IMG/VR virus record: IMGVR_UViG_2534681675_000024
Strand: one strand, 5' to 3'
Length of the DNA stretch: 16,949 nucleotides
Source of the DNA: a virus
Lineage: Duplodnaviria > Heunggongvirae > Uroviricota > Caudoviricetes
The translations under genes and the position numbers were made by a program. The notes beneath the pieces were generated by a model, which was given only the letters and a program-made list of their open reading frames with translations, was not told where the DNA came from and ran no database searches. This document shows positions 1 through 16,629 of the stretch, piece by piece (the first letter of the stretch is position 1; each line of letters starts with the position of its first letter).

Positions 1-1269
1 ATGCCAAAACTCACAGATATGCAGATCCGCGCATGGATAAAGGCGGGAGACAGATTTGATGGCAAGGCAGACGGCAACGGCCTTTATATTTGCTACCCCA
101 AAAACTACACAGTCCCGTTCTGGCGATTCCGATATAAGCTCGCAGGAAAACAGCGGGCTATGGTTATCGGCTCTTACTCCGAACTGTCACTATCAAAAGC
201 CAGAGAAACAGCAAAAGAGCTGTCAGCCAGAGTTGCTCTTGGCTATGACGTAGCAGCAGAAAAACAGGAACGAAAAGCTGAAGCACTGGCAAAAATGGAG
301 GCTGAGAAAAACGCCATGCGCGTTTCAGATCTGGCCTCCGAATACTTCGAGCGCCAGATACTTCCGAGATGGAAACATCCCGATATCCTTCGCCGGAGAA
401 TTGATAAGGATATTAACCCCTGCATTGGGCATATGAAGGTAGAGGACGTTAAGCCACGCCACATTGACGACATGTTGAAAGGTATCGTTGACCGAGGAGC
501 ACCAACGATAGCAACAGATGTATTACGCTGGACACGCCGTATCTTTGACTATGGGATAAAACGCCACGCTCTGGAGATAAACCCTTGTTCAGCGTTTGAA
601 GTATCTGATGCTGGTGGTAAAGAGGTTTCCCGCGACCGTTGGCTAACTCGCGATGAGCTTATCAGGCTATTCGAGGCTATGCGCACCGCAAAAGGATTCA
701 GCCGCCAGAACGAACTGACATTTAAGCTATTGCTGGCACTATGCGTTCGTAAGATGGAGTTATGCGCCGCACGATGGGAAGAGTTTGATTTAGATGGTGC
801 GGTATGGCATTTGCCGGAAGAACGCAGCAAAAACGGAGACCCTATTGATATACCTCTACCTTCCCCAGCCGTTGAATGGTTGAGAGAGCTACACACCTTT
901 TCATGTAATAGCGCATGGGTGCTTCCAGCCAGGAAGATGCAAAACAGAATGATCCCACATATTCAGGAAAGCACTTTACCCGTAGCACTGGCTAAGGTTC
1001 GCGCCGAAATGCCGGATGTGCCTAATTTCACGATTCACGACTTCCGGCGTACCGCACGTACTCATTTAGCAGCATTGGGTGTTGATCCTGTCGTGGCGGA
1101 ACGATGCCTCAATCATCGCATTAAGGGTGTGGAGGGGATTTATAACCGCCATCAGTATTTTGATGAGCGTAAAGCTGCGCTGGCACAGTGGGCTGATCTG
1201 CTGGTGGCACTGGAAAGCGGGAAAGACTACAACGTAACGCCATTCGATAAAGCCCGGAGGCAAATGTGA
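1..1269 (+). CDS. int: Tyrosine site-specific integrase (P4 / CP4-57-like phage integrase family)
   Basis: 422-aa ORF starting at window position 1. The C-terminal region carries the tyrosine-recombinase catalytic pattern (HDFRRT, then HRIKGVEGIYNRHQY with the presumed nucleophilic Tyr). Size and N-terminal arm-binding region fit P4-type integrases. The att site and any tRNA lie upstream, outside the window. Confidence 0.93.
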   Translation: MPKLTDMQIRAWIKAGDRFDGKADGNGLYICYPKNYTVPFWRFRYKLAGKQRAMVIGSYSELSLSKARETAKELSARVALGYDVAAEKQERKAEALAKMEAEKNAMRVSDLASEYFERQILPRWKHPDILRRRIDKDINPCIGHMKVEDVKPRHIDDMLKGIVDRGAPTIATDVLRWTRRIFDYGIKRHALEINPCSAFEVSDAGGKEVSRDRWLTRDELIRLFEAMRTAKGFSRQNELTFKLLLALCVRKMELCAARWEEFDLDGAVWHLPEERSKNGDPIDIPLPSPAVEWLRELHTFSCNSAWVLPARKMQNRMIPHIQESTLPVALAKVRAEMPDVPNFTIHDFRRTARTHLAALGVDPVVAERCLNHRIKGVEGIYNRHQYFDERKAALAQWADLLVALESGKDYNVTPFDKARRQM

Positions 1270-6354: not shown

Positions 6355-8706
6355 ATGCGAAACATTGATCTTATCCGTCAGGTTATCAGTGCGTCTGAAA
6401 ACAACTGGCCTCATGTGCTGGGCTGTCTGAACATAAATGTCCCTGACTCTCCGCGCCGTCATGCTCCCTGCCCTGCATGTGGGGGCAAAGATCGATTCCG
6501 GTTCGACGACAACGGGCGCGGTAGCTTCATCTGTAATCAGTGCGGCGCTGGTGATGGGCTGGATTTAATTAAACGCGTAAATAACTGCGACACAACAGAG
6601 GCGGCGCTTCTTGCCGCTGATGTTCTGGGTATTGATTACCGGACAACGGAAACACCAGAAGCCACCAGCCAGAAACGGGAACAACTGGAAACCGAGCGCC
6701 AGCGACGCGAACAGGAGCGCCTGAAAAGGGCAGAGAAGGACGAACAACAAAGACGGGATACGTTTTCCCGTCAGTTTGATGACATGCGCAGAAAGGCTGT
6801 AAACGGCAAATCTGATTATCTGGTTGCGAAAGGGGTAGGTGATTTTACATTCCCCGTGTTGCCAGATGGATCTCTGTTGCTGGCGCTGGTGGATAAATCC
6901 GGCGCAGTCACAGCAGCACAGACTATTACCTCACATGGTGAAAAAAGACTCCTGACAGGTTCAGCAAAGCGGGGGGCGTATCACGCCATAAACGCACAGA
7001 AACGACCTCACAGCATCATAATTGCTGAGGGTGTGGCTACCGCCCTGTCGTGCCATTTAATTCGCCCTGACGCAATGACAGTGGCAGCAATCGACGCTGG
7101 CAACCTGTTGCCAGTAGCGGAAGTCATGCGCAGAACATATCCACAGGCACAAATCATCATTGCCGCAGATAACGATCACCAGCAAGGAAACTCCGAAAGT
7201 GGAGGGATCAACACGGGGAAAGATGCCGCAGAGAGGGCCGCTATTTCCGTAGCTGGCTGGGTGTCTCTGCCACCGACTGACTATAAAGCCGACTGGAACG
7301 ACTATCACCAACAACACGGGCTGGCGGCAGCCACAGCAGCATTTAAAGATTCGATGTACCAGCCACGGGGGAAAGGGGCGCAGGTGAAAAATCACAAACA
7401 GTCAGTCGGGGCGCTTAATGAGATCAGTTCTGGCGAGGTGTTAAGCGATGATGAAATTGCTGTCCTCAAAGAAATCAACCGGACGTTTACGCATGTCACC
7501 ATCGGCGGGAAACACAAGGTGGTGTCGCTAAAGCCTTCTCAAACCGGCGGTGTATCGCACGTTTTCGAGGATTTATCACAATTTCAGCATTATTTTCATC
7601 ATAAACCGAGAGTCGCCAGAAAGCTGGCGGGATCGGCGTGGCTGTCATGGAGTGGGAAGAACTACAAGCCAGGAGGCGTAGGATTTTATCCAGTACCAGA
7701 CAAATGCCCTGACGATGTTTTTAATCTGTATGAGGGGCTGGCACTGGAACCAATTGAAGGAGATTGCACGGTATACCTTAATCACCTGTTGCAGGTTGTC
7801 TGTGCCGGTAATGAAGAGGCATACCAATATCTTATCCAGTGGATGGCGCACATTATCCAAAAGCCTGATGAAAAACCGTCCGTGGCAATCGTGATGAAAT
7901 CTGTCCCGGGCACAGGGAAAGGCACAACGGTTAAACCGCTGCTGCAAATACTGGGGCAGTACGCCGCCCACATTAACGGGGCGGGACATATTTCAGGGCG
8001 CTTCAATTCAATACTTGCTAACAAGCTACTGGTATTTGCTGACGAAGTGACGATCCACAAGCCGTCTGAAGCTGACAGACTTAAAGCGATTATTAGCGAA
8101 CCGACGTTTAACCTTGAGCGCAAGGGAATTGATGCTGAACCAATGCCGAATTTTGCCCGGTTGATATTTGCCAGTAACAGCACACAGGTATTACAGGCGG
8201 GGATAAGAGAGCGCCGCTATCTCGTGCTTGAGCCATCTCCTGAAAAAGCACAGAGCCGGGAGTATTTTGATCGGCTGTACAGTTGGCTTAATGATGGCGG
8301 TGCCGCAAAGTTGCTTTGGCATCTTAAAGGGGTGGATCTCTCAGGTTTTGACCCTCAACGAGCGCCACAGACCGATGCCTTACGTGAAGAAATCTTGCTG
8401 GGGCTGTCTGGCGTTGAATTGTTTCTTTATGGCGAGCTAATCAATGAACCTCCGTTTAATGGCGAAGTCCGTTTGTTTGCAAAGGATATGGTTAGTCGAT
8501 TTGTAGCGTGGTCGCTTGAGCGTGGGGAAAAGCTTAAAGAGCCAGCAGCCAGATCACTACTGGGTAAATCACTTGCACAAATGGGGCTGGTGAAGCATGG
8601 AAGACCAGACCGAGGGAATGGCGTGTTCTACGAACTACCAGAGGTCGGAGTTCTACAGGCTGCGTTTGCCCGTCTGATCGGTATGGGGGGTTATGATGTT
8701 TTTTAA
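6355..8706 (+). CDS. Replicative primase-helicase (zinc-finger + Toprim primase domain, C-terminal P-loop NTPase; P4 alpha / D5-like)
   Basis: 783-aa ORF with a G-rich SD. It has an N-terminal zinc-binding pair (CPACGG ... CNQCG), a Toprim-like acidic core (IIIAEGVATALS and AADNDHQQGN), and a C-terminal Walker A-like loop (VPGTGKGTT) with a Walker B-like hhhhDE (LLVFADEV). Size is close to P4 alpha. Confidence 0.9.
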   Translation: MRNIDLIRQVISASENNWPHVLGCLNINVPDSPRRHAPCPACGGKDRFRFDDNGRGSFICNQCGAGDGLDLIKRVNNCDTTEAALLAADVLGIDYRTTETPEATSQKREQLETERQRREQERLKRAEKDEQQRRDTFSRQFDDMRRKAVNGKSDYLVAKGVGDFTFPVLPDGSLLLALVDKSGAVTAAQTITSHGEKRLLTGSAKRGAYHAINAQKRPHSIIIAEGVATALSCHLIRPDAMTVAAIDAGNLLPVAEVMRRTYPQAQIIIAADNDHQQGNSESGGINTGKDAAERAAISVAGWVSLPPTDYKADWNDYHQQHGLAAATAAFKDSMYQPRGKGAQVKNHKQSVGALNEISSGEVLSDDEIAVLKEINRTFTHVTIGGKHKVVSLKPSQTGGVSHVFEDLSQFQHYFHHKPRVARKLAGSAWLSWSGKNYKPGGVGFYPVPDKCPDDVFNLYEGLALEPIEGDCTVYLNHLLQVVCAGNEEAYQYLIQWMAHIIQKPDEKPSVAIVMKSVPGTGKGTTVKPLLQILGQYAAHINGAGHISGRFNSILANKLLVFADEVTIHKPSEADRLKAIISEPTFNLERKGIDAEPMPNFARLIFASNSTQVLQAGIRERRYLVLEPSPEKAQSREYFDRLYSWLNDGGAAKLLWHLKGVDLSGFDPQRAPQTDALREEILLGLSGVELFLYGELINEPPFNGEVRLFAKDMVSRFVAWSLERGEKLKEPAARSLLGKSLAQMGLVKHGRPDRGNGVFYELPEVGVLQAAFARLIGMGGYDVF

Positions 8707-8730
8707 TATAGTCTTTTTACAAGAAGATCG

Positions 8731-8840
8731 TTTTTACCTGTACCACCTATACCACTTTGCTAATTCAGTATTAAAAACAGTGCGTTATAGTGGTACAGGT
8801 CAATATCTTACCTATACCAGACCTGTACCACCTATACCAT
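8731..8840. repeat. Iteron-like repeat cluster 1, immediately 3' of the primase-helicase gene (candidate ori)
   Basis: CCTGTACCACCTATACCA occurs at 8737-8754 and 8822-8839. An inverted copy TGGTACAGGT lies at 8791-8800 and an extra CCTATACCA at 8811-8819. The same core family recurs in cluster 2. Confidence 0.6.
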
Positions 8841-8882
8841 TAACAAACGCATTTCTTCTGGCTGGCTGAGAGGAAACAACCA

Positions 8883-9113
8883 ATGATGAGCACACCATTT
8901 TACAAAGTGCGCCAGTTAGCTTCTTCCTCTGGCTGGCAGCTGCGGTTTGAGGGGCGTTCAGACTGGCTACCCATTGCGGCATGGGCGAATGTTGAAATGT
9001 GTATTGACGGCGATACCGTTGAAATCATTATTCCCTGCGTGGCAAGTCGGGACGGCTGTATAGAGCCAACAGATATGGCAGCAGAAATCAGAGAGGTAAA
9101 ACATGAACAATAA
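8883..9113 (+). CDS. Small hypothetical protein (76 aa)
   Basis: SD GAGAGGA upstream of ATG 8883; its stop overlaps the next gene's start. No domain recognised. Confidence 0.6.
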   Translation: MMSTPFYKVRQLASSSGWQLRFEGRSDWLPIAAWANVEMCIDGDTVEIIIPCVASRDGCIEPTDMAAEIREVKHEQ

Positions 9114-9840
9114 CTATTGCATACCGCAGGGAATGACCAGAACGGAGCGCGAAGAATTAAAAAGTTTCGCTACACAGTGCGGGAATGCTGGCGACATCCA
9201 AAGTCTGGAACGCACTTTAATTATGATTGCGCACTGGATGCGTCAGGGGCAAAGGGTTTCATTTACTGAATATGCCAGCCAGTGGACAGAGGCACAGCGC
9301 GAACGGAGCGACGGTAATCACTCAACACCCGAAATGGCGAAGCAATGGCCTTTCAGTGGTAAACGCTGTATCAGTCCCGGTGGTTCAGATTATTACCCTG
9401 CTGGTGTGGGAGATGAGCCATGTTGTGACGAGACTGAAATCCGCCACGCAGTGACAGTAATTACCGCTGAATACCCACAATTTAACCTTGACGGACTGGC
9501 GCTCCACAACCGGAATGCGGACTGGGAAAACCCGCTTGATAACCCGTCATTTATCGTATCGGCGAAAAGCTGCCTGAGATGGATCAGAGACAACGGGATG
9601 AGTAATGCCCAGATTGAGAGCTTCCCGCAGGATAACCCCACATCTGACACGTTGAAGCATGAAGTGGAGCGATATAACCAGATAAACCACCAGCACAGTG
9701 ATCACCCGCACTATATCCCCAACGGAGCATTTATTGCGGCGATGGTGGCAAGCGGCTACAAGGTTAAGCCAGCGGGAAGAATGAACGCATTTTTCAATAT
9801 TTCAAAAAAGGGATTATGTGCTGCTATGGGTAAAAATTAA
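9103..9840 (+). CDS. Hypothetical protein (245 aa)
   Basis: SD GAGAGG before ATG 9103, coupled to the upstream gene. Protein-like composition, no recognisable domain. Confidence 0.7.
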   Translation: MNNNYCIPQGMTRTEREELKSFATQCGNAGDIQSLERTLIMIAHWMRQGQRVSFTEYASQWTEAQRERSDGNHSTPEMAKQWPFSGKRCISPGGSDYYPAGVGDEPCCDETEIRHAVTVITAEYPQFNLDGLALHNRNADWENPLDNPSFIVSAKSCLRWIRDNGMSNAQIESFPQDNPTSDTLKHEVERYNQINHQHSDHPHYIPNGAFIAAMVASGYKVKPAGRMNAFFNISKKGLCAAMGKN

Positions 9841-9845
9841 ATAAA

Positions 9846-9949
9846 TGGTACAGGTCTGTACAGGTGGGGAGAGGTCATTTTTACCCACCTGTACCACCTA
9901 CAGGCCGCGTCACACAAGGGTTTGTGACATGGTGGTACAGGTGGTACAG
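9846..9949. repeat. Iteron-like repeat cluster 2 (same family as cluster 1) plus a GTCACA-N8-TGTGAC palindrome
   Basis: TGGTACAGGT at 9846-9855, CTGTACAGGTGG at 9856-9867, ACCTGTACCACCTA at 9887-9900, and tandem inverted GGTGGTACAGGTGGTACAG at 9931-9949. A palindrome GTCACACAAGGGTTTGTGAC lies at 9909-9928. TTTTTACC precedes the repeat in both clusters. Confidence 0.6.
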
Positions 9950-10314
9950 CAAAAACAGCGATTTTCTTTATAAGGTATGTTTTGCTCATCTGGCAGGCGG
10001 AGGTATTCGCTGCGGTTTGGCACATAGCCCAGAACAGCAAAGAGTTTTACGAGACTTTTGTAAAATCCAGTGTACAAGGGCGTGACGTTTTTGAAGGAGA
10101 GACCTACGAAATTTTCGTAGTTCAAAAAATAGCCTCTGAGATGTTGTTATGCCTGTTCAGCAAACCATCCGCATAGCTGATCGCGAATCAAATTACCAAT
10201 GGAGCCAGAAGCAAGGGCAGAACTGGAAAGCGCCTGCCGTGAAGAGTAATGCGACATCGTAAATATAGTTTTTAGAGTCCATAAAAAACCTGTCAAAACC
10301 TGACATACAGAACG

Positions 10315-10442: not shown

Positions 10443-10616
10443 ATGGCTATTTCAGTAAAGCCAGTATTGATAAGTGAGAAGCAAATGGAAGCGATAAAGA
10501 AAATTCAGGAGGAGCAGCGTAAAAAATCAGAGGTAGGAGTTGCGCCAACGATCCACGAAATTGCTCGGGGATTAATGGATAAGGCGCTGGCTTACACTTT
10601 AACTGGACGTGGGTAA
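10443..10616 (+). CDS. Small hypothetical protein (57 aa), first gene of a three-gene operon
   Basis: Not in the supplied ORF track (below its length threshold). ATG 10443 is preceded by a strong SD (AAGGGGG). The stop at 10614-10616 lies 4 nt before the next ATG (10621). Helical composition; a regulatory role is only a guess. Confidence 0.5.
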
Positions 10617-10620
10617 ATTT

Positions 10621-12087
10621 ATGGCTACTTGGCAACAAGGAATCAACTCAGGCGGTTTTCTGGCTGGCATCGGTACGCAAAATGAGAATGCGCCAAAGGC
10701 AAGCGACATTAACGCAACGCTTGGTCTGATCCGCGAAAACAATGAACTGGCTCGCTCAGGTGCAAATAACGTTGGTCTGACCGCGTTACGTGGTCTGGCT
10801 GGAGTTGCTGATATTTATAAGCAGGAACAGCAACAGAAAGCGATTAATGCGTTCAATAAGGTTCACGCTGATGCATGGGCTTCTGGTGATCCATCGGGAC
10901 TATTTAAGTTTGCCCAGGAAAATCCAGCGTTTGTTGCACAGGTACAACAGGCGTTTTCTGGTCTTAATGATCAGCAACGCAACGATATGGGCGATTTAGC
11001 CATGAGGGCTAACGTCGCTCTTTCTCAGGGACCGGAAGCCTACAGTAAATTCATTACTGACAACAAGGACAGGTTAAATCGCGTTGGTGCTAATGCTGAC
11101 TGGATGATTCAGACAGGTATCCAGAATCCAGAGCAGCTATCACACATGCTGACTACTATGTCTCTCGGTGCGCTTGGACCAGAAAAGGCGTTTGCTGTTC
11201 AGGATAAGATGGTTGGTCGTGAGATTGACCGAGGCCAGCTGGCAGAGACAATCCGCAGCAATAAGGCTGGAGAGGCACTTCAGGCGAGAGGGCAGGATAT
11301 TAGCCGAGCAAATGCGTTAACGTCAGCATATGCACCAACAGCCGCAATGCAGAATTACAATCAGTACGCGCAAATGTTAAAGGCGGACCCAGAGGGGGCG
11401 GCGGCATTTGCGGCAGCGGCTGGAATTAATACAAACGCCAAAAAATTAATGAGTGTTAGAGAAAACGATGATGGCACTGTCACAAAATACTACACAGACG
11501 GAAGTGAAGAGCAGGGAAAACTAAACCAGCCAATATCTGGAGATGGGTTTCGTCCAATAGCTTTGCCAACAGCCCAAAAGATCATGGAAAAGTCGCCAGA
11601 AGGGGCTAAAAAAGCTGCTGGATTTGCATACAGGGTTAGGGATGCTCTTGATTCAATAGATACACTGAAAGACCAGCTTAGCCCACAGCGAGTGGCGATC
11701 ATTAATAATGCTTTGGGTAATGGGACGCTGGCTAACTTAACGCTCAGCCCAGCAGAGCAGCAATACGTTGTTAATGCTAATGACGCAATAATGGCAATAC
11801 TCCGTCAGGAAACAGGGGCATCTATCCTACCAGCTGAAATGTCCAAATATTATCAAATGTATTTCCCTCAGCCTGGTGATTCCACAAAAACCATTGATAC
11901 CAAGCGCCGGAAGATGGAAAACCAGTTCAATTCGCTGAAAGCTGCTTCTGGTCGAGCTTATGATGCTTTGCGGGTTATTTCAGCAGTTGACAGAGGAACT
12001 TCTTCTTCGTCGCAGACATTGCCGCAATCTGAGCAGGTATCACAGCCAGCAGCCAGCAGTAATTTTTCTTCACTATGGGGTGATTAA
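10621..12087 (+). CDS. Large hypothetical protein (488 aa), Cys-free, Ala/Gln/Asn/Gly-rich, predicted mostly alpha-helical
   Basis: ATG 10621 chosen over the track's 10609. No Cys, few aromatics, Q/A-rich low-complexity stretches, and no enzymatic motif I can identify. Its stop overlaps the next start (TAATG). Confidence 0.8.
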
Positions 12088-14192
12088 TGGCTAAAGCATG
12101 GAAAGATGTTATCGCTTCTCCACAGTATCAGGCGTTAGCACCAGAACAAAAAGCGCAGGCTCAGGAGCAATACTTCAATGAAGTCGTGGCCCCGCAAGCC
12201 GGAGAAAGTGTAGAGCAGGCTAAGCAGGCTTTTTATGCTGCCTATCCACTACCATCAACGAATGAAATAAACCGATCCCAATCAGCAACTCAAAATATTC
12301 AACATACATCATCTGATAATTCTCTTGCGTCAGGGTATGCAAAGTTAGCTACTCAGCAAAGAGAGGGGCTTGAGCGTTCAGCAGAACAGGGAGCCAGTCT
12401 TGGGGCTGCGATGCGCGATGCTATAACAGGCGAAAGCCGAATGACTCCAGAGATGGAGAGACTGCAAAATGTCGACCTTGCCCCAGAGTTAACCTCACTC
12501 AGCATGGATGCTCTAAAAGCTCGATGGTCTCAACTTTTCGGCTCTGACGCATCTCAGGAAAAGATTCTTCAGAGCATGGGAGCGAAATTAAGGCAGGATG
12601 AGAAGGGTAACACTATCGTTTCCCTGCCATCCGGTGATTATGCTCTGAACAAGCCGGGTTTATCGCCGCAAGACGTGGCATCGTTTCTGGCTAATGCGCT
12701 GGCGTTTACACCAGCGGGCAGGGCTGGAACGGTGCTTGGTGCCATAGGAAAATCAGCAGCTACAGATTTAGCACTACAGGGAGCCACCAGCCTTGCTGGT
12801 GGAGAAGATATTGATCCGTTACAAACGGTAATTTCTGCTGGCATTGGTGGTATTGGTAAGGGGCTGGAAAATACAGCGAGTGCGGTTTCGAGGGCTGTTC
12901 GTGGTGATATGTCGCCTGAAGCAAAGGCTGCTGTCGACTTTGCATCGGAAAGAAATCTGCCGTTAATGACCAGTGACATGCTGAAAGATAAAACCTTTAT
13001 GCAGAGTCAGGCTCAGACATTAGGCGAAAGAGTTCCTTTTTTTGGAACCGGTAAGAATCGGCTGAATCAACAACAAGCACGAGAAAATTTAGTCAGAACA
13101 TTTAGCGATGGTCTGGGGGGAATTTCAGATAAACAGCTTTATGAGTCTGCGACTAAAGGGCAGCAAAAATTCATTGAGGCAGCAGGAAAGCGATATAACC
13201 GCATAATTGACGCTATGGGGGATACCCCTGTCGATCTCTCAAACACGGTAAAAACTATCGACAATCAGATTGCCGTGTTAAGCCGCCCTGGCAAATCTCA
13301 GGATAGAGCCGCGGTAAAAGTCTTGCAGCAATTTAAAGACGATATCACCAGCGGACCAAATGACCTGCGTCTGGCGAGGGAAAACAGAACCGATCTTCGA
13401 AAGCGATTTATAGCGTCATCTGACACTGTTGATAAAGATACGCTCCAGAAAGCCAGCGATATTATCTACAAGGCATATACGGCGGATATGAAAAAAGCCG
13501 TAGCCAAAAATCTTGGAGCAGACGAAGCCATTAATATGGCAAGGGTTGATCGCTCATGGTCTAAATTCAATGACATGATGGGAAGAACGCGCGTTCAAAA
13601 GGCAATAGCCAGCGGCAAGGCCACGCCTGAGGATGTAACAAAACTCGTTTTTAGCCAAAGCCCATCAGAACGTTCTCAGCTTTACAGGCTTCTGGATGAC
13701 AATGGTAGGCAAAACGCACGAGCAGCTATAGTTCAGAATGCTGTAGATAAGGCGACTGATCCGTCTGGAAATATCAGTGTTGAGAAGTTTATTAATGCGT
13801 TACACCGGAACAGGAAGCAATCAGCAACTTTCTTTAAAGGCGTACATGGAAAGGAACTGGACGGCGTTATTAAATACCTCAACGATACAAGACACGCGGC
13901 AAAAGCGAACGTTCAAAACTTAAATGGTCAGCAGCTTTATGGATTGTTAGTTGGTGGTGGCATCATAAACGCAGCAGTATTAGCGGGGATGCTAAAAACG
14001 GCTGCGTTTGTTGTTCCTGCTGCTGGTGCCGTAGGCGGAGCAGCGAAGGCATACGAAAGCCCTGTTATACGAAATGCCTTGTTACGTCTGGCAAATACGC
14101 CAAAAGGTAGCACAGCATATGACAGAGCGATCAGTACGGTCACACAATCGCTCACCAGAGTCGCACAGGCATCACAAAAAGAATCTCAATAA
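12087..14192 (+). CDS. Large hypothetical protein (701 aa), Cys-free, helical, with a C-terminal Gly/Ala-rich hydrophobic hairpin
   Basis: Long uninterrupted ORF coupled to the upstream gene. The segment LYGLLVGGGIINAAVLAGMLKTAAFVVPAAGAVGGAAKAY (about nt 13934-14056) looks like a membrane-insertion hairpin. GIGKG and GAIGKS do not fit true Walker A spacing. Confidence 0.85.
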   Translation: MAKAWKDVIASPQYQALAPEQKAQAQEQYFNEVVAPQAGESVEQAKQAFYAAYPLPSTNEINRSQSATQNIQHTSSDNSLASGYAKLATQQREGLERSAEQGASLGAAMRDAITGESRMTPEMERLQNVDLAPELTSLSMDALKARWSQLFGSDASQEKILQSMGAKLRQDEKGNTIVSLPSGDYALNKPGLSPQDVASFLANALAFTPAGRAGTVLGAIGKSAATDLALQGATSLAGGEDIDPLQTVISAGIGGIGKGLENTASAVSRAVRGDMSPEAKAAVDFASERNLPLMTSDMLKDKTFMQSQAQTLGERVPFFGTGKNRLNQQQARENLVRTFSDGLGGISDKQLYESATKGQQKFIEAAGKRYNRIIDAMGDTPVDLSNTVKTIDNQIAVLSRPGKSQDRAAVKVLQQFKDDITSGPNDLRLARENRTDLRKRFIASSDTVDKDTLQKASDIIYKAYTADMKKAVAKNLGADEAINMARVDRSWSKFNDMMGRTRVQKAIASGKATPEDVTKLVFSQSPSERSQLYRLLDDNGRQNARAAIVQNAVDKATDPSGNISVEKFINALHRNRKQSATFFKGVHGKELDGVIKYLNDTRHAAKANVQNLNGQQLYGLLVGGGIINAAVLAGMLKTAAFVVPAAGAVGGAAKAYESPVIRNALLRLANTPKGSTAYDRAISTVTQSLTRVAQASQKESQ

Positions 14193-14211: not shown

Positions 14212-14826
14212 TTAAATATCTCTGCTGTCTCCATTAGGAAATAAAAGATAATATGGATTTGCCTTTCTTGCTCTCCTTGCTTCACCTGGATACCTGTTAG
14301 TCAGTAGCTTGCATAATGAGCAGAGAACAACACTCAAGAAAATTCCGAATGAGAAGATCAATATCTCACCAAAAATCAATGGCGATATTAAATTTTCAGG
14401 ATTTAATGATAAGTCAATGTTAAAAACATATTGAGCAATACCAGTAAGTATCAATAATATAATCCCTATGGAATACATTGCTGTTTCCCAAACATCAGAC
14501 AGTCTATTTTTGAATTTTTCGCTGGAGTAGTAGTTTGTTATAAAGTCAGAAAAATCACTCTCATATGCATCATCTTTAGGTGATGTTAGAAATCCTCTGT
14601 CTCTCCATACCTTCTCCCAATTAGTCGATTCTTTTTTTAAGGAAAAATAAATATGTATTGCCAAAAGGATAGCCAAAATTGGTGTTAGCTCTAAAAAATA
14701 GAATGTTATGGAATAAATAATACTGCCATGTTCAAACTCATCTGGGACTATCATGTATGCACAAAAATAAATTGAAAAGTACACCATGCAGATAGTTAGC
14801 AATTCTTTAGTATCTTTTCTGCTCAC
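14212..14826 (-). CDS. Integral membrane protein (about 204 aa, four predicted TM helices), strongly AT-rich
   Basis: Four hydrophobic stretches of about 20 residues each, with a basic C-terminal tail (RRARK). GTG start at 14826 is preceded by SD AAGGGGG; an alternative ATG is at 14787. The gene is markedly AT-rich relative to its neighbours and converges on the 701-aa gene with only 19 bp between stops. Confidence 0.8.
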   Translation of the reverse strand: MSRKDTKELLTICMVYFSIYFCAYMIVPDEFEHGSIIYSITFYFLELTPILAILLAIHIYFSLKKESTNWEKVWRDRGFLTSPKDDAYESDFSDFITNYYSSEKFKNRLSDVWETAMYSIGIILLILTGIAQYVFNIDLSLNPENLISPLIFGEILIFSFGIFLSVVLCSLCKLLTNRYPGEARRARKANPYYLLFPNGDSRDI

Positions 14827-15626: not shown

Positions 15627-16082
15627 TTATACGCTGACCTTACAATCAATCACCGCTTTTAACTTTTCAGCATTGCTTCCCTGACGCTTCCACGCGCTGT
15701 AAATATCTTTATCCCACGCTTTACCAGCTTTTGTTTGATAGCCTGCTTCATTGATCCGTTCAGCTATCACACGCCCATTATCAAATCCCTGTTGGATGGT
15801 ATCGGCAATGATCTTTATAACTGCCGTTTCGTTATATGGTTTTGGTGGGATGTTCGGCTTTCCGGCAATAAGCGACGCAGCGGCTTTTTCCATGCGCTCC
15901 ACCAGCCCAAGCATTCGTGAATCAATAGACTTTTCCGGCTGCCCCAGCTTCATGCGAATCGCATCAACAAGCCAAGAGGTTTTATCTCCTCCAGAAGCGA
16001 GAACAGACCGATTAAACTCATCCTGCAATTCAGATGGGATGCGGAACGCGATCAGATTAGATTTGCTCATTGCAAAGACCAT
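15627..16082 (-). CDS. Ribbon-helix-helix (Arc/CopG-like) DNA-binding protein with a C-terminal recombinase-like helical domain (151 aa)
   Basis: The N-terminus has a classic RHH pattern (LIAFRIPSELQDEFNRSVLASGGDKTSWLVDAIRMKL). The C-terminal segment GRVIAERINEAGYQTKAGKAWDKDIYSAWKR resembles the recombinase-domain motif of serine recombinases, but there is no catalytic domain. Start could be 16082 or 16070; no clear SD. Confidence 0.7.
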   Translation of the reverse strand: MVFAMSKSNLIAFRIPSELQDEFNRSVLASGGDKTSWLVDAIRMKLGQPEKSIDSRMLGLVERMEKAAASLIAGKPNIPPKPYNETAVIKIIADTIQQGFDNGRVIAERINEAGYQTKAGKAWDKDIYSAWKRQGSNAEKLKAVIDCKVSV

Positions 16083-16183
16083 ATCAGTGAGTAATATCCA
16101 TACAGTATACCACTGTATAACACTGTTATACGCTCAAATATCAGCCAGAAAATAACAGACCAATCACAAATCTATCGCTGTGT

Positions 16184-16306
16184 TGTTGGTTCAGAGCTGG
16201 GCTGTGTTGGTTCAAAATGAGTTGATGTTGGTTCAATATTTTAGAAAAAACACAATAAAAACAACGCTCTTTACAAATTGAACCAACTGAACCAACTGAA
16301 CCAACA
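16184..16306. promoter_or_regulatory. Operator/iteron array: three TGTTGGTTCA direct repeats at 21-bp spacing plus three tandem inverted TGAACCAAC copies
   Basis: Direct copies at 16184-16193, 16205-16214 and 16226-16235. After an AT-rich spacer, TGAACCAAC repeats sit at 16279-16287, 16288-16296 and 16297-16305. A TATAAT hexamer at 16323-16328 and SD GAGAGG precede the perC-like ATG. Confidence 0.7.
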
Positions 16307-16341
16307 CCTTTTTGCTTATCTATATAATCTGAGAGGCAGAA

Positions 16342-16629
16342 ATGATAAAGGACAGGAAAGCTGAAGAGCTGGAGTCAAAAGGGCTATACCGGAGAGCTGC
16401 CGCGCGATGGGCAGAAGTCATGATGCTGGCAGATGGCGATAAAGAACGTGAACATGCAGCAAACAGACGCTCTGAATGTATCCGTAAGGCGGCACGCCCA
16501 CCAGCAACTACAGACAGATTCGGAGATTTAAGACAGGCAGTTAAGCGGACTCATTCGGCTCTTGGTATGGATGAGGAAGCGAGAGGGTACTTCAGGCGTT
16601 ATCGCGATAAAGATTGCCAGAGACAGTAA
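16342..16629 (+). CDS. PerC-family transcriptional regulator-like protein (95 aa)
   Basis: Size and the N-terminal motif ESKGLYRRAAARWAEVM resemble PerC/Pch-family regulators known from EPEC/EHEC plasmids and prophages. TATAAT and an SD lie upstream. Confidence 0.7.
   Translation: MIKDRKAEELESKGLYRRAAARWAEVMMLADGDKEREHAANRRSECIRKAARPPATTDRFGDLRQAVKRTHSALGMDEEARGYFRRYRDKDCQRQ

Follow-up and report, generated by a model that had tools for sequence, protein, structure and literature searches.

The window analysed here, a 16,949-nucleotide stretch of DNA (IMG/VR virus record IMGVR_UViG_2534681675_000024), carries near its right-hand end a gene for a small protein of the PerC/Pch family, in front of which lies an array of short repeats. 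From its sequence, the carrier can be identified as an EcCIMP1-like phage satellite, that is, a phage-inducible chromosomal island (PICI); it spans about 18 kb and has inserted into the 3' end of yicC. The features around the gene are as follows.

15627..16082, minus strand: divergent gene of 151 amino acids (aa), with a possible Arc-like ribbon-helix-helix N-terminus.
16104..16131, no strand assigned: three related 9-10-mers (ACAGTATAC / ACTGTATAAC / ACTGTTATAC) beside the start of the 151-aa gene.
16185..16235, plus strand: three spaced GTTGGTTCA iterons at 21-bp spacing (copies at 16185-16193, 16206-16214 and 16227-16235).
16236..16278, no strand assigned: AT-rich spacer of 43 bp with 9 G/C, between the two iteron sets.
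16279..16305, minus strand: three head-to-tail iterons, reading as three copies of TGAACCAAC on the plus strand.
16306..16341, plus strand: conserved 36-nt leader, with TATAAT at 16323-16328; presumed promoter region of perC.
16331..16336, plus strand: Shine-Dalgarno sequence GAGAGG, read from the sequence, 5 nt ahead of the perC ATG.
16342..16629, plus strand: PerC/Pch-family open reading frame (ORF) of 95 aa, with an ATG start and a TAA stop; the final island gene before attR.

The assignment of the 95-aa protein to the PerC family, first made in the original prediction, was borne out by profile search. The Pfam PerC model PF06069 was matched with a score of 114.3 bits (gathering score 22.6; E=3.1e-33), and the alignment is full length, spanning residues 1-89 on model positions 1-89 of 90. 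The protein also matches phrog_994 (E=2.7e-37), and near-identical copies bear the RefSeq label 'PerC family transcriptional regulator'. In an alignment of 20 sequences that includes PerC of enteropathogenic Escherichia coli (EPEC), the 95-aa protein and its 19 relatives have in common the N-terminal motif KAE-LE-KGLYRRAA-RW, which lies in the first 50 residues and whose residues are invariant or nearly so; the C-terminal half of these proteins is variable. An AlphaFold2 (AF2) model built from 22 sequences exhibits five helices, with a predicted local distance difference test score (pLDDT) of about 90 for residues 1-50. A sequence search of the PDB with the PerC-like protein found no relative, and in a Foldseek search with the model the best PDB match was not significant (E=1.2), the top partial matches being TPR-like helical hairpins. 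Some likeness to ANR (AraC negative regulator, Aar), whose members are also small helical proteins, is confined to a weak match over the N-terminal 50 residues: model NF033650 reached 26.2 bits over residues 5-52 only (E=5e-6), which is below the NCBIfam cutoff of 32, and the window protein is about 40 residues longer than this 54-position model. Judging from its relatives, the PerC-like protein would be small and helical and would lack a recognisable DNA-binding fold; the model hints that it may act via protein contacts and not via a classical DNA-binding domain. A scan of species-representative genomes with the single protein returned no PerC-like loci, and an alignment-based scan for PerC-like genes returned 13. 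Protein cluster P0096 (107 aa) has only its last ~30 residues in common with the window protein, its N-terminus being unrelated; a rearrangement probably gave rise to this fusion or miscall.

With regard to the repeats in front of perC, the window contains seven copies of TTGGTTCA, where 0.69 would be expected, and no shuffle out of 200 reached seven. Six of the seven copies fall within 121 bp (16185-16305), three of them at 21-bp spacing and three in tandem on the other strand. The original prediction had described these repeats as a dedicated operator array. The repeats themselves are real, but their reading as a dedicated operator did not hold: the comparisons described below identify the array as the replication origin of sibling satellites, copied completely and in inverted orientation, and not as a private operator.

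Gram-negative PICIs have been described with an origin directly 3' of the pri-rep gene, in which an AT-rich region is flanked by two sets of iterons (PMC6092414). The same 9-mer forms a 3+3 array 25-30 bp past the stop of a 918-aa primase, annotated as 'TOPRIM and DUF927', in the islands of strain ISHS7 (locus L001), EcCIMP1 (L002), L003 and strain ET761 (L086), and the array occupies the origin position by the primase in L001, L002, L003, L012 and L086. These sibling origins have three 9-mers in tandem and three spaced ones, with an AT-rich core in between. The window segment 16203-16312 shows 78.5% identity over 121 bp to the opposite strand of the ISHS7 origin (blastn), a global alignment of the window array with the inverted sibling origin gives 112 identical columns out of 152, and the 3' part of the spacer, aaaacaacgNtctttacaaat, aligns to the AT-rich core. 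The exact 27-mer made up of three TGAACCAAC copies is present in 61 IMG/VR loci, where 19 occurrences adjoin the 3' end of a primase gene and others precede PerC-like, single-stranded DNA-binding protein (SSB)-like or other small genes; only four occurrences have no further copies nearby. A similar 'cacNNtttNtgNttat' stretch follows the tandem iterons ahead of other genes in other loci. In Enterobacter adelaidei, the perC-like gene comes directly after the primase, with 11 exact core copies and one degenerate copy between the two. Klebsiella phage P12620-1 (PQ569648.1), with a genome of 106 kb, matches the array at 74% over ~120 bp (100970-101087, unannotated there); it is the sole match to the array region in the phage collection.

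This distribution bears on the possibility that the repeats are a dedicated operator for a regulator of perC, the obvious candidate being the 151-aa Arc-like protein. Ribbon-helix-helix proteins such as MetJ and omega bind head-to-tail sites cooperatively, and the three head-to-tail 9-mers would fit such sites; moreover, the repeats lie between a divergent gene pair, and many loci contain both the 151-aa gene and the array. However, in EcCIMP1 the PerC-like gene is preceded by the same array and 36-nt leader, and a homologue of the 151-aa protein is absent, and in L012 the homologue of the 151-aa gene lies 6.5 kb from the array. The identical array also stands beside primase stops and before SSB-like and other genes, so that it is not restricted to perC and one regulator, as the operator reading had implied. 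In addition, a distinct set of repeats belongs to the 151-aa gene (16104-16131); it contains the palindrome GTATAACA-c-TGTTATAC (16115-16131) and is conserved in L003, L080, L083, L084, L086 and L087; this separate repeat set is a candidate operator of the 151-aa gene. The 151-aa protein matched no family in a Pfam scan. It has 354 homologues, the named ones coming from several Enterobacterales genera, and one source label reads 'Arc-like DNA binding domain'; its AF2 model (pLDDT 54.6) was too poor to use. As the sequence of the perC-side repeats follows the primase C-terminus, and neither PerC nor the divergent neighbour, as set out in the next paragraph, we regard a dedicated operator as very unlikely.

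Relatives with the same layout use another 9-mer at every position: TGAGACAAC in L010, L011 and L015 (Shimwellia, Enterobacter asburiae and an Enterobacterales genome); L007 (Escherichia albertii) has TGGGACAAG. The C-terminal halves of 25 primases were aligned over 566 residues, with 21 sequences in the TGAACCAAC group (down to 66% identity over the last 100 residues) and three in the TGAGACAAC group. Thirteen columns separate these two groups, and 12 of them fall in the last 96 of the 566 residues (binomial 6e-9). The corresponding motifs are SGRGYQ[RQ]KSPRI..GRQxNVYV in the TGAACCAAC group and SGRGYQGRV-RE..GRQIRVYV in the TGAGACAAC group. Across L003, L010, L011, L015, L007 and 20 further loci, a motif of ~12 residues at the C-terminus of the DUF927-type primase (KSPRI..N, RV-RE..R or RTPRLKHMKGARLR) tracks the iteron 9-mer, three motifs corresponding to three types. 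The extreme C-terminus of the DUF927-type primase is thus the probable reader of the 9-mer.

The island in the window encodes a primase of a different type, and the features that concern its replication are the following.

6355..8706, plus strand: primase-helicase of 783 aa, with a Zn-ribbon and Toprim N-terminal half and a DUF5906-type C-terminal half (Pfam).
8736..8839, no strand assigned: probable own origin, with two direct, one inverted and three direct copies of ACCTRTACCA around an AT-rich stretch.
7377..10192, no strand assigned: block without nucleotide similarity to the ISHS7 island (blastn against L001), covering the C-terminal half of the primase together with the origin and two ORFs.

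Only residues 1-351 of the window primase resemble the 918-aa DUF927-type primases, and no ORF in the window matches the C-terminal half of a DUF927-type primase; the cognate initiator of GTTGGTTCA is therefore not encoded here. The origin at 8736-8839 begins 30 bp past the primase stop, and the same six ACCTRTACCA copies follow every DUF5906-type primase examined (window, L080, L082, L083, L084 and L087), in the PICI origin layout of PMC6092414. The window and the ISHS7 island are otherwise 95-99% identical: similarity ends at 7376 and resumes at 10193. This pattern identifies the primase C-terminal half and the adjacent origin as a replication-specificity module that is exchanged between sibling satellites as a unit. 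Since this module has been swapped to the DUF5906/ACCTRTACCA type in the window, the perC-side array would be non-cognate here. It differs from the known PICI origin in being inverted, in lying 7.5 kb from the primase gene and in being mismatched to the resident primase type; a plasmid maintenance assay of a PICI origin has been carried out for EcCICFT073 (PMC6092414).

Two other functions were considered for the array and rejected. It does not serve as this island's own origin, since the canonical ACCTRTACCA origin is found right after the primase; the origin idea was revived in modified form because in sibling islands the 27-mer scan placed the array where the origin lies. Nor does it represent integrase arm sites: the EcCIMP1 integrase is only 29% identical and its att site is thrW, yet the array is the same, and the att flanks bear different repeats (GTGTACATA).

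The perC-side array varies among islands with a DUF5906-type primase. In six such islands the number of tandem copies is 3, 3, 4, 2, 0 and 0, with four copies in L082 and two in L083, whereas all four DUF927-type islands found independently of the repeat have three. In L084 (17806-17856) and L087 (18683-18733), a shared deletion joins the perC ribosome-binding site to the second spaced iterons: the AT-rich core is gone, as are the tandem iterons and TATAAT, and the ribosome-binding site and the gene are retained. This copy-number variation, although based on small numbers, suggests relaxed constraint on the array in DUF5906-type islands.

The same counts are relevant to the possibility that the perC-side array still functions in replication, as a second cis element in the siblings and here as a site acting in trans, either one that titrates a rival primase or one that such a primase fires. 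The window and L080 each retain the full set of six iterons. Phage P4 provides a precedent, as the C-terminal part of its primase-helicase reads short iterons and its two iteron regions, ori and crr, lie ~4.5 kb apart. The likeness lies in one small replicon carrying two iteron regions that are kilobases apart; the iteron sequences differ, and a need for both arrays in the satellite family of the window would be an extrapolation from this case. P4 alpha and its site are also mentioned in PMC6092414, and every element of a PICI origin described there, namely two iteron sets around an AT-rich core, is present in front of perC. Furthermore, strain ET761 has one island of each type, a DUF927-type satellite at yicC/dinD (L086) and a DUF5906-type satellite at thrW (L087), each with its own PerC-like gene, so that a DUF927-type primase can be present in trans. 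Nevertheless, neither the AT-rich core nor the tandem copies remain in two of the six DUF5906-type islands, copy number differs among others, and a continuing role in replication is unlikely. It is still more doubtful that the mismatched copy is kept as a functional device, be it a decoy that titrates a rival DUF927-type primase or a sensor that couples perC to it.

The array could nevertheless influence the expression of perC. Given that the upstream gene is divergent, the perC promoter must lie within 16083-16341, and transcription would begin within the origin copy or next to it. A -35 partner for TATAAT (16323-16328) is missing, as the last iteron occupies that position. The GAGAGG Shine-Dalgarno sequence is retained even in relatives without the tandem repeats. 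In the sibling islands, occupancy of the array by the primase would probably influence perC transcription, whereas in the window island such an effect could come only from a DUF927-type primase supplied by a co-resident satellite.

The location of the gene within the satellite was established from the island ends. The island sits between yicC and dinD in the three genomes examined: ISHS7 (L001), 19451123 (L080) and ET761 (L086). The 8-bp att core CAGATTCA is found 13 bp before the yicC stop and again 190 bp past the position matching the window end; in L080, whose strain 19451123 is the closest whole-island match to the window, the two copies lie at 2496-2503, within the 3' end of yicC, and at 20818-20825, and the end of yicC is replaced by one from the island. 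Paired GTGTACATA repeats, which look like integrase arm-type sites, are located near both L080 ends (~2620-2650 and 20735-20757), outside the window. L003 (NZ_CP148430.1, strain Z1323CEC0013), deposited as a plasmid, is a circle of 12,152 bp with a joined att core and the order perC-attP-int. It is the excised circular form of a sibling island in which the ejection-protein cargo is missing, and the chromosome record of Z1323CEC0013 contains a 100% match to the 821-bp primase-origin segment of the circle. Both the placement of the att core and the order perC-attP-int make the PerC-like gene the last gene inside the island before attR, and not a neighbour of the element, as had been supposed; the broader statement that PerC/Pch genes are carried by mobile elements agrees with its location in an island of PICI type, for which att sites and a circular form are seen. 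EcCIMP1 of E. coli MP1 was excised and transferred only with helper phage Kapi1 (PMC11773190). As for abundance, the right-end segment 15300-16949 (1650 bp) is 99.6% identical in several genomes, similarity to it was found in 1195 of 5426 complete genomes, and about one in ten complete E. coli genomes was matched by either primase-origin query.

The position of the gene also suggests a role for the protein in the satellite cycle, either relieving the silencing of the island or of a helper prophage, or acting with the replication module. PerC-like genes are found just after the primase-origin(-SSB) module in satellites of several genera, including OI-51/Sp7, and Pch-type proteins counteract H-NS, a silencer of AT-rich acquired DNA (PMC4764244). 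On the other hand, the presence of a PerC-family gene varies among EcCIMP1-like elements, and Pick et al. described no life-cycle role for EcCIMP1_025 (PMC11773190). We regard a role in the satellite cycle as a tentative possibility; it is compatible with an accessory gene behind a non-cognate origin copy and does not exclude it.

Among characterised proteins, the 95-aa protein was compared with PchE of O157:H7 Sakai (56% identity over 89 aa), with EcCIMP1_025 (53%) and with EPEC PerC from pMAR2 (43%); a 104-aa plasmid homologue, ~50% identical, sits 2.2 kb upstream of an NleG effector gene. PchE (ECs_1588, 90 aa) is a member of the PerC family that is also carried by a P4-like satellite (OI-51/Sp7/CP-933C), downstream of primase and SSB genes (PMC3378721). 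In contrast to the window gene, it follows the SSB gene within an operon with no iteron array directly in front, and the OI-51 island also has capsid and terminase genes. EcCIMP1_025 belongs to the same satellite family as the window protein, has the same GTTGGTTCA array and leader, and its first 30 residues are near-identical. EcCIMP1 differs in its thrW site and its integrase, in retaining a cognate DUF927-type primase and origin, and in the absence of the 151-aa neighbour. EPEC PerC and PchA/B/C of enterohaemorrhagic E. coli (EHEC) have the same Pfam family and N-terminal motif, but their genes lie in an operon after perA/perB on the EAF (EPEC adherence factor) plasmid, or on lambdoid prophages or plasmids, and they activate ler against H-NS silencing (PMC4764244).

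This family relationship raises the question of whether the window protein activates LEE (locus of enterocyte effacement), as EPEC PerC or EHEC PchA/B/C do. Pch activates LEE1 by displacing H-NS-containing silencing complexes (PMC4764244), and some PICI-encoded PerC homologues activate LEE according to Fillol-Salom et al. (PMC6092414), which, together with the shared Pfam family and 43% identity to PerC, would favour such a role. However, the closer relatives behave differently. PchE opposes group-1 Pch proteins, represses curli and adhesion and supports flagella (PMC7369912), and has been reported without LEE activation (PMC11773190, PMC7369912). EcCIMP1_025 silences LEE1-lux in Citrobacter rodentium, for which Pick et al. 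suggested ANR-like behaviour, and the same authors state that LEE1 fusions did not respond to the PerC-like proteins of EcCICFT073 and EcCIEDL933 (PMC11773190). The hosts of near-identical islands include isolates from cat, pig, chicken and frog, commensals and O6:H16 strains, and the selC island of host ISHS7, the one genome checked, is not LEE. Given that PchE and EcCIMP1_025 are reported as non-activators or repressors and that the hosts include commensal, animal and O6:H16 strains, LEE activation is unlikely as a conserved function, and activation of ler by the window protein would not be expected. We consider a LEE activator like EPEC PerC or EHEC PchA/B/C to be highly unlikely for this gene, so the implication of LEE activation that came with the original prediction falls away. 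Its more general point, that a mobile PerC/Pch protein can act on chromosomal regulons, has a precedent in the silencing of LEE1-lux by EcCIMP1_025 (PMC11773190), and crosstalk of the window protein with the host is plausible by analogy. By comparison with its relatives, the protein would most likely remodel H-NS-type silencing complexes or partner regulators through protein contacts, which would alter the expression of host genes or of other horizontally acquired genes.

Taken as a whole, the locus is probably explained by a satellite accessory gene of the PerC family that lies behind a non-cognate, inverted copy of a replication origin. Several points weigh against this explanation. Its support is wholly computational, and the mechanism proposed for the protein is extrapolated from Pch proteins at 43-56% identity. 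A consensus scan for sigma-70 promoters and terminators found none for perC, and TATAAT at 16323-16328 leaves almost no leader before the ribosome-binding site. With regard to the iterons, the repeat itself served to select most TGAACCAAC loci, and the groups with alternative iterons are small (3 + 1 loci) and phylogenetically clustered. As all six iterons are preserved in the window and in L080, the array could still function. Finally, PMC11773190 and PMC6092414 give differing accounts of the original test of PICI-encoded PerC homologues on LEE1 (Porter et al. 2005).

The gene order in the window is integrase, AlpA-like, AntA-family, Ash-family, primase-helicase, two P22-type ejection homologues, three minus-strand ORFs and PerC-like. 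The integrase, AlpA-like, AntA, Ash and primase genes all point in one direction, and the island has no capsid, tail or lysis genes. The other features of note are:

1..1269, plus strand: tyrosine integrase with an arm-binding domain (Pfam), at the left island end; the window begins at its ATG.
10609-14192: two large P22-type DNA-ejection (injectosome) homologues, the first matching Pfam Inj_translocase (E=3.6e-118).
14212-14826, minus strand: predicted membrane protein of 204 aa, with a weak match to a SieA-like superinfection-exclusion PHROG (E=2e-4).

The ejection-protein homologues are the only virion-related genes in the island and fit the resemblance of EcCIMP1 cargo genes to proteins of helper phage Kapi1 (PMC11773190). 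The 204-aa membrane protein could be related to the unexplained superinfection immunity of EcCIMP1; PADLOC returned no hits on the island cargo proteins, including this one. In L080, an Abi-family gene (18229-19191) is found where the window has a 66-aa ORF region, in a variable cargo slot to the left of the 151-aa gene.

E. coli phage satellites with PerC-like genes have already been published, and one such gene has been tested; the window gene adds a variant. The duplication of the origin, its mismatch and the C-terminal specificity motif are new and represent modest observations on this satellite family. That an operator-looking array consists of origin iterons is a caution against over-reading layouts in which a divergent gene is accompanied by repeats. 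An abundant satellite family appears to have two inverted origin copies bracketing its cargo region, and a short C-terminal primase motif is the probable reader of the iterons. Replication-specificity modules pass between sibling satellites and leave mismatched iterons behind. If such leftover iterons interact with co-resident satellites, this would bear on satellite competition: a decoy would mean incompatibility of one satellite against another in the same cell, and a sensor would couple perC to the presence of a rival primase.

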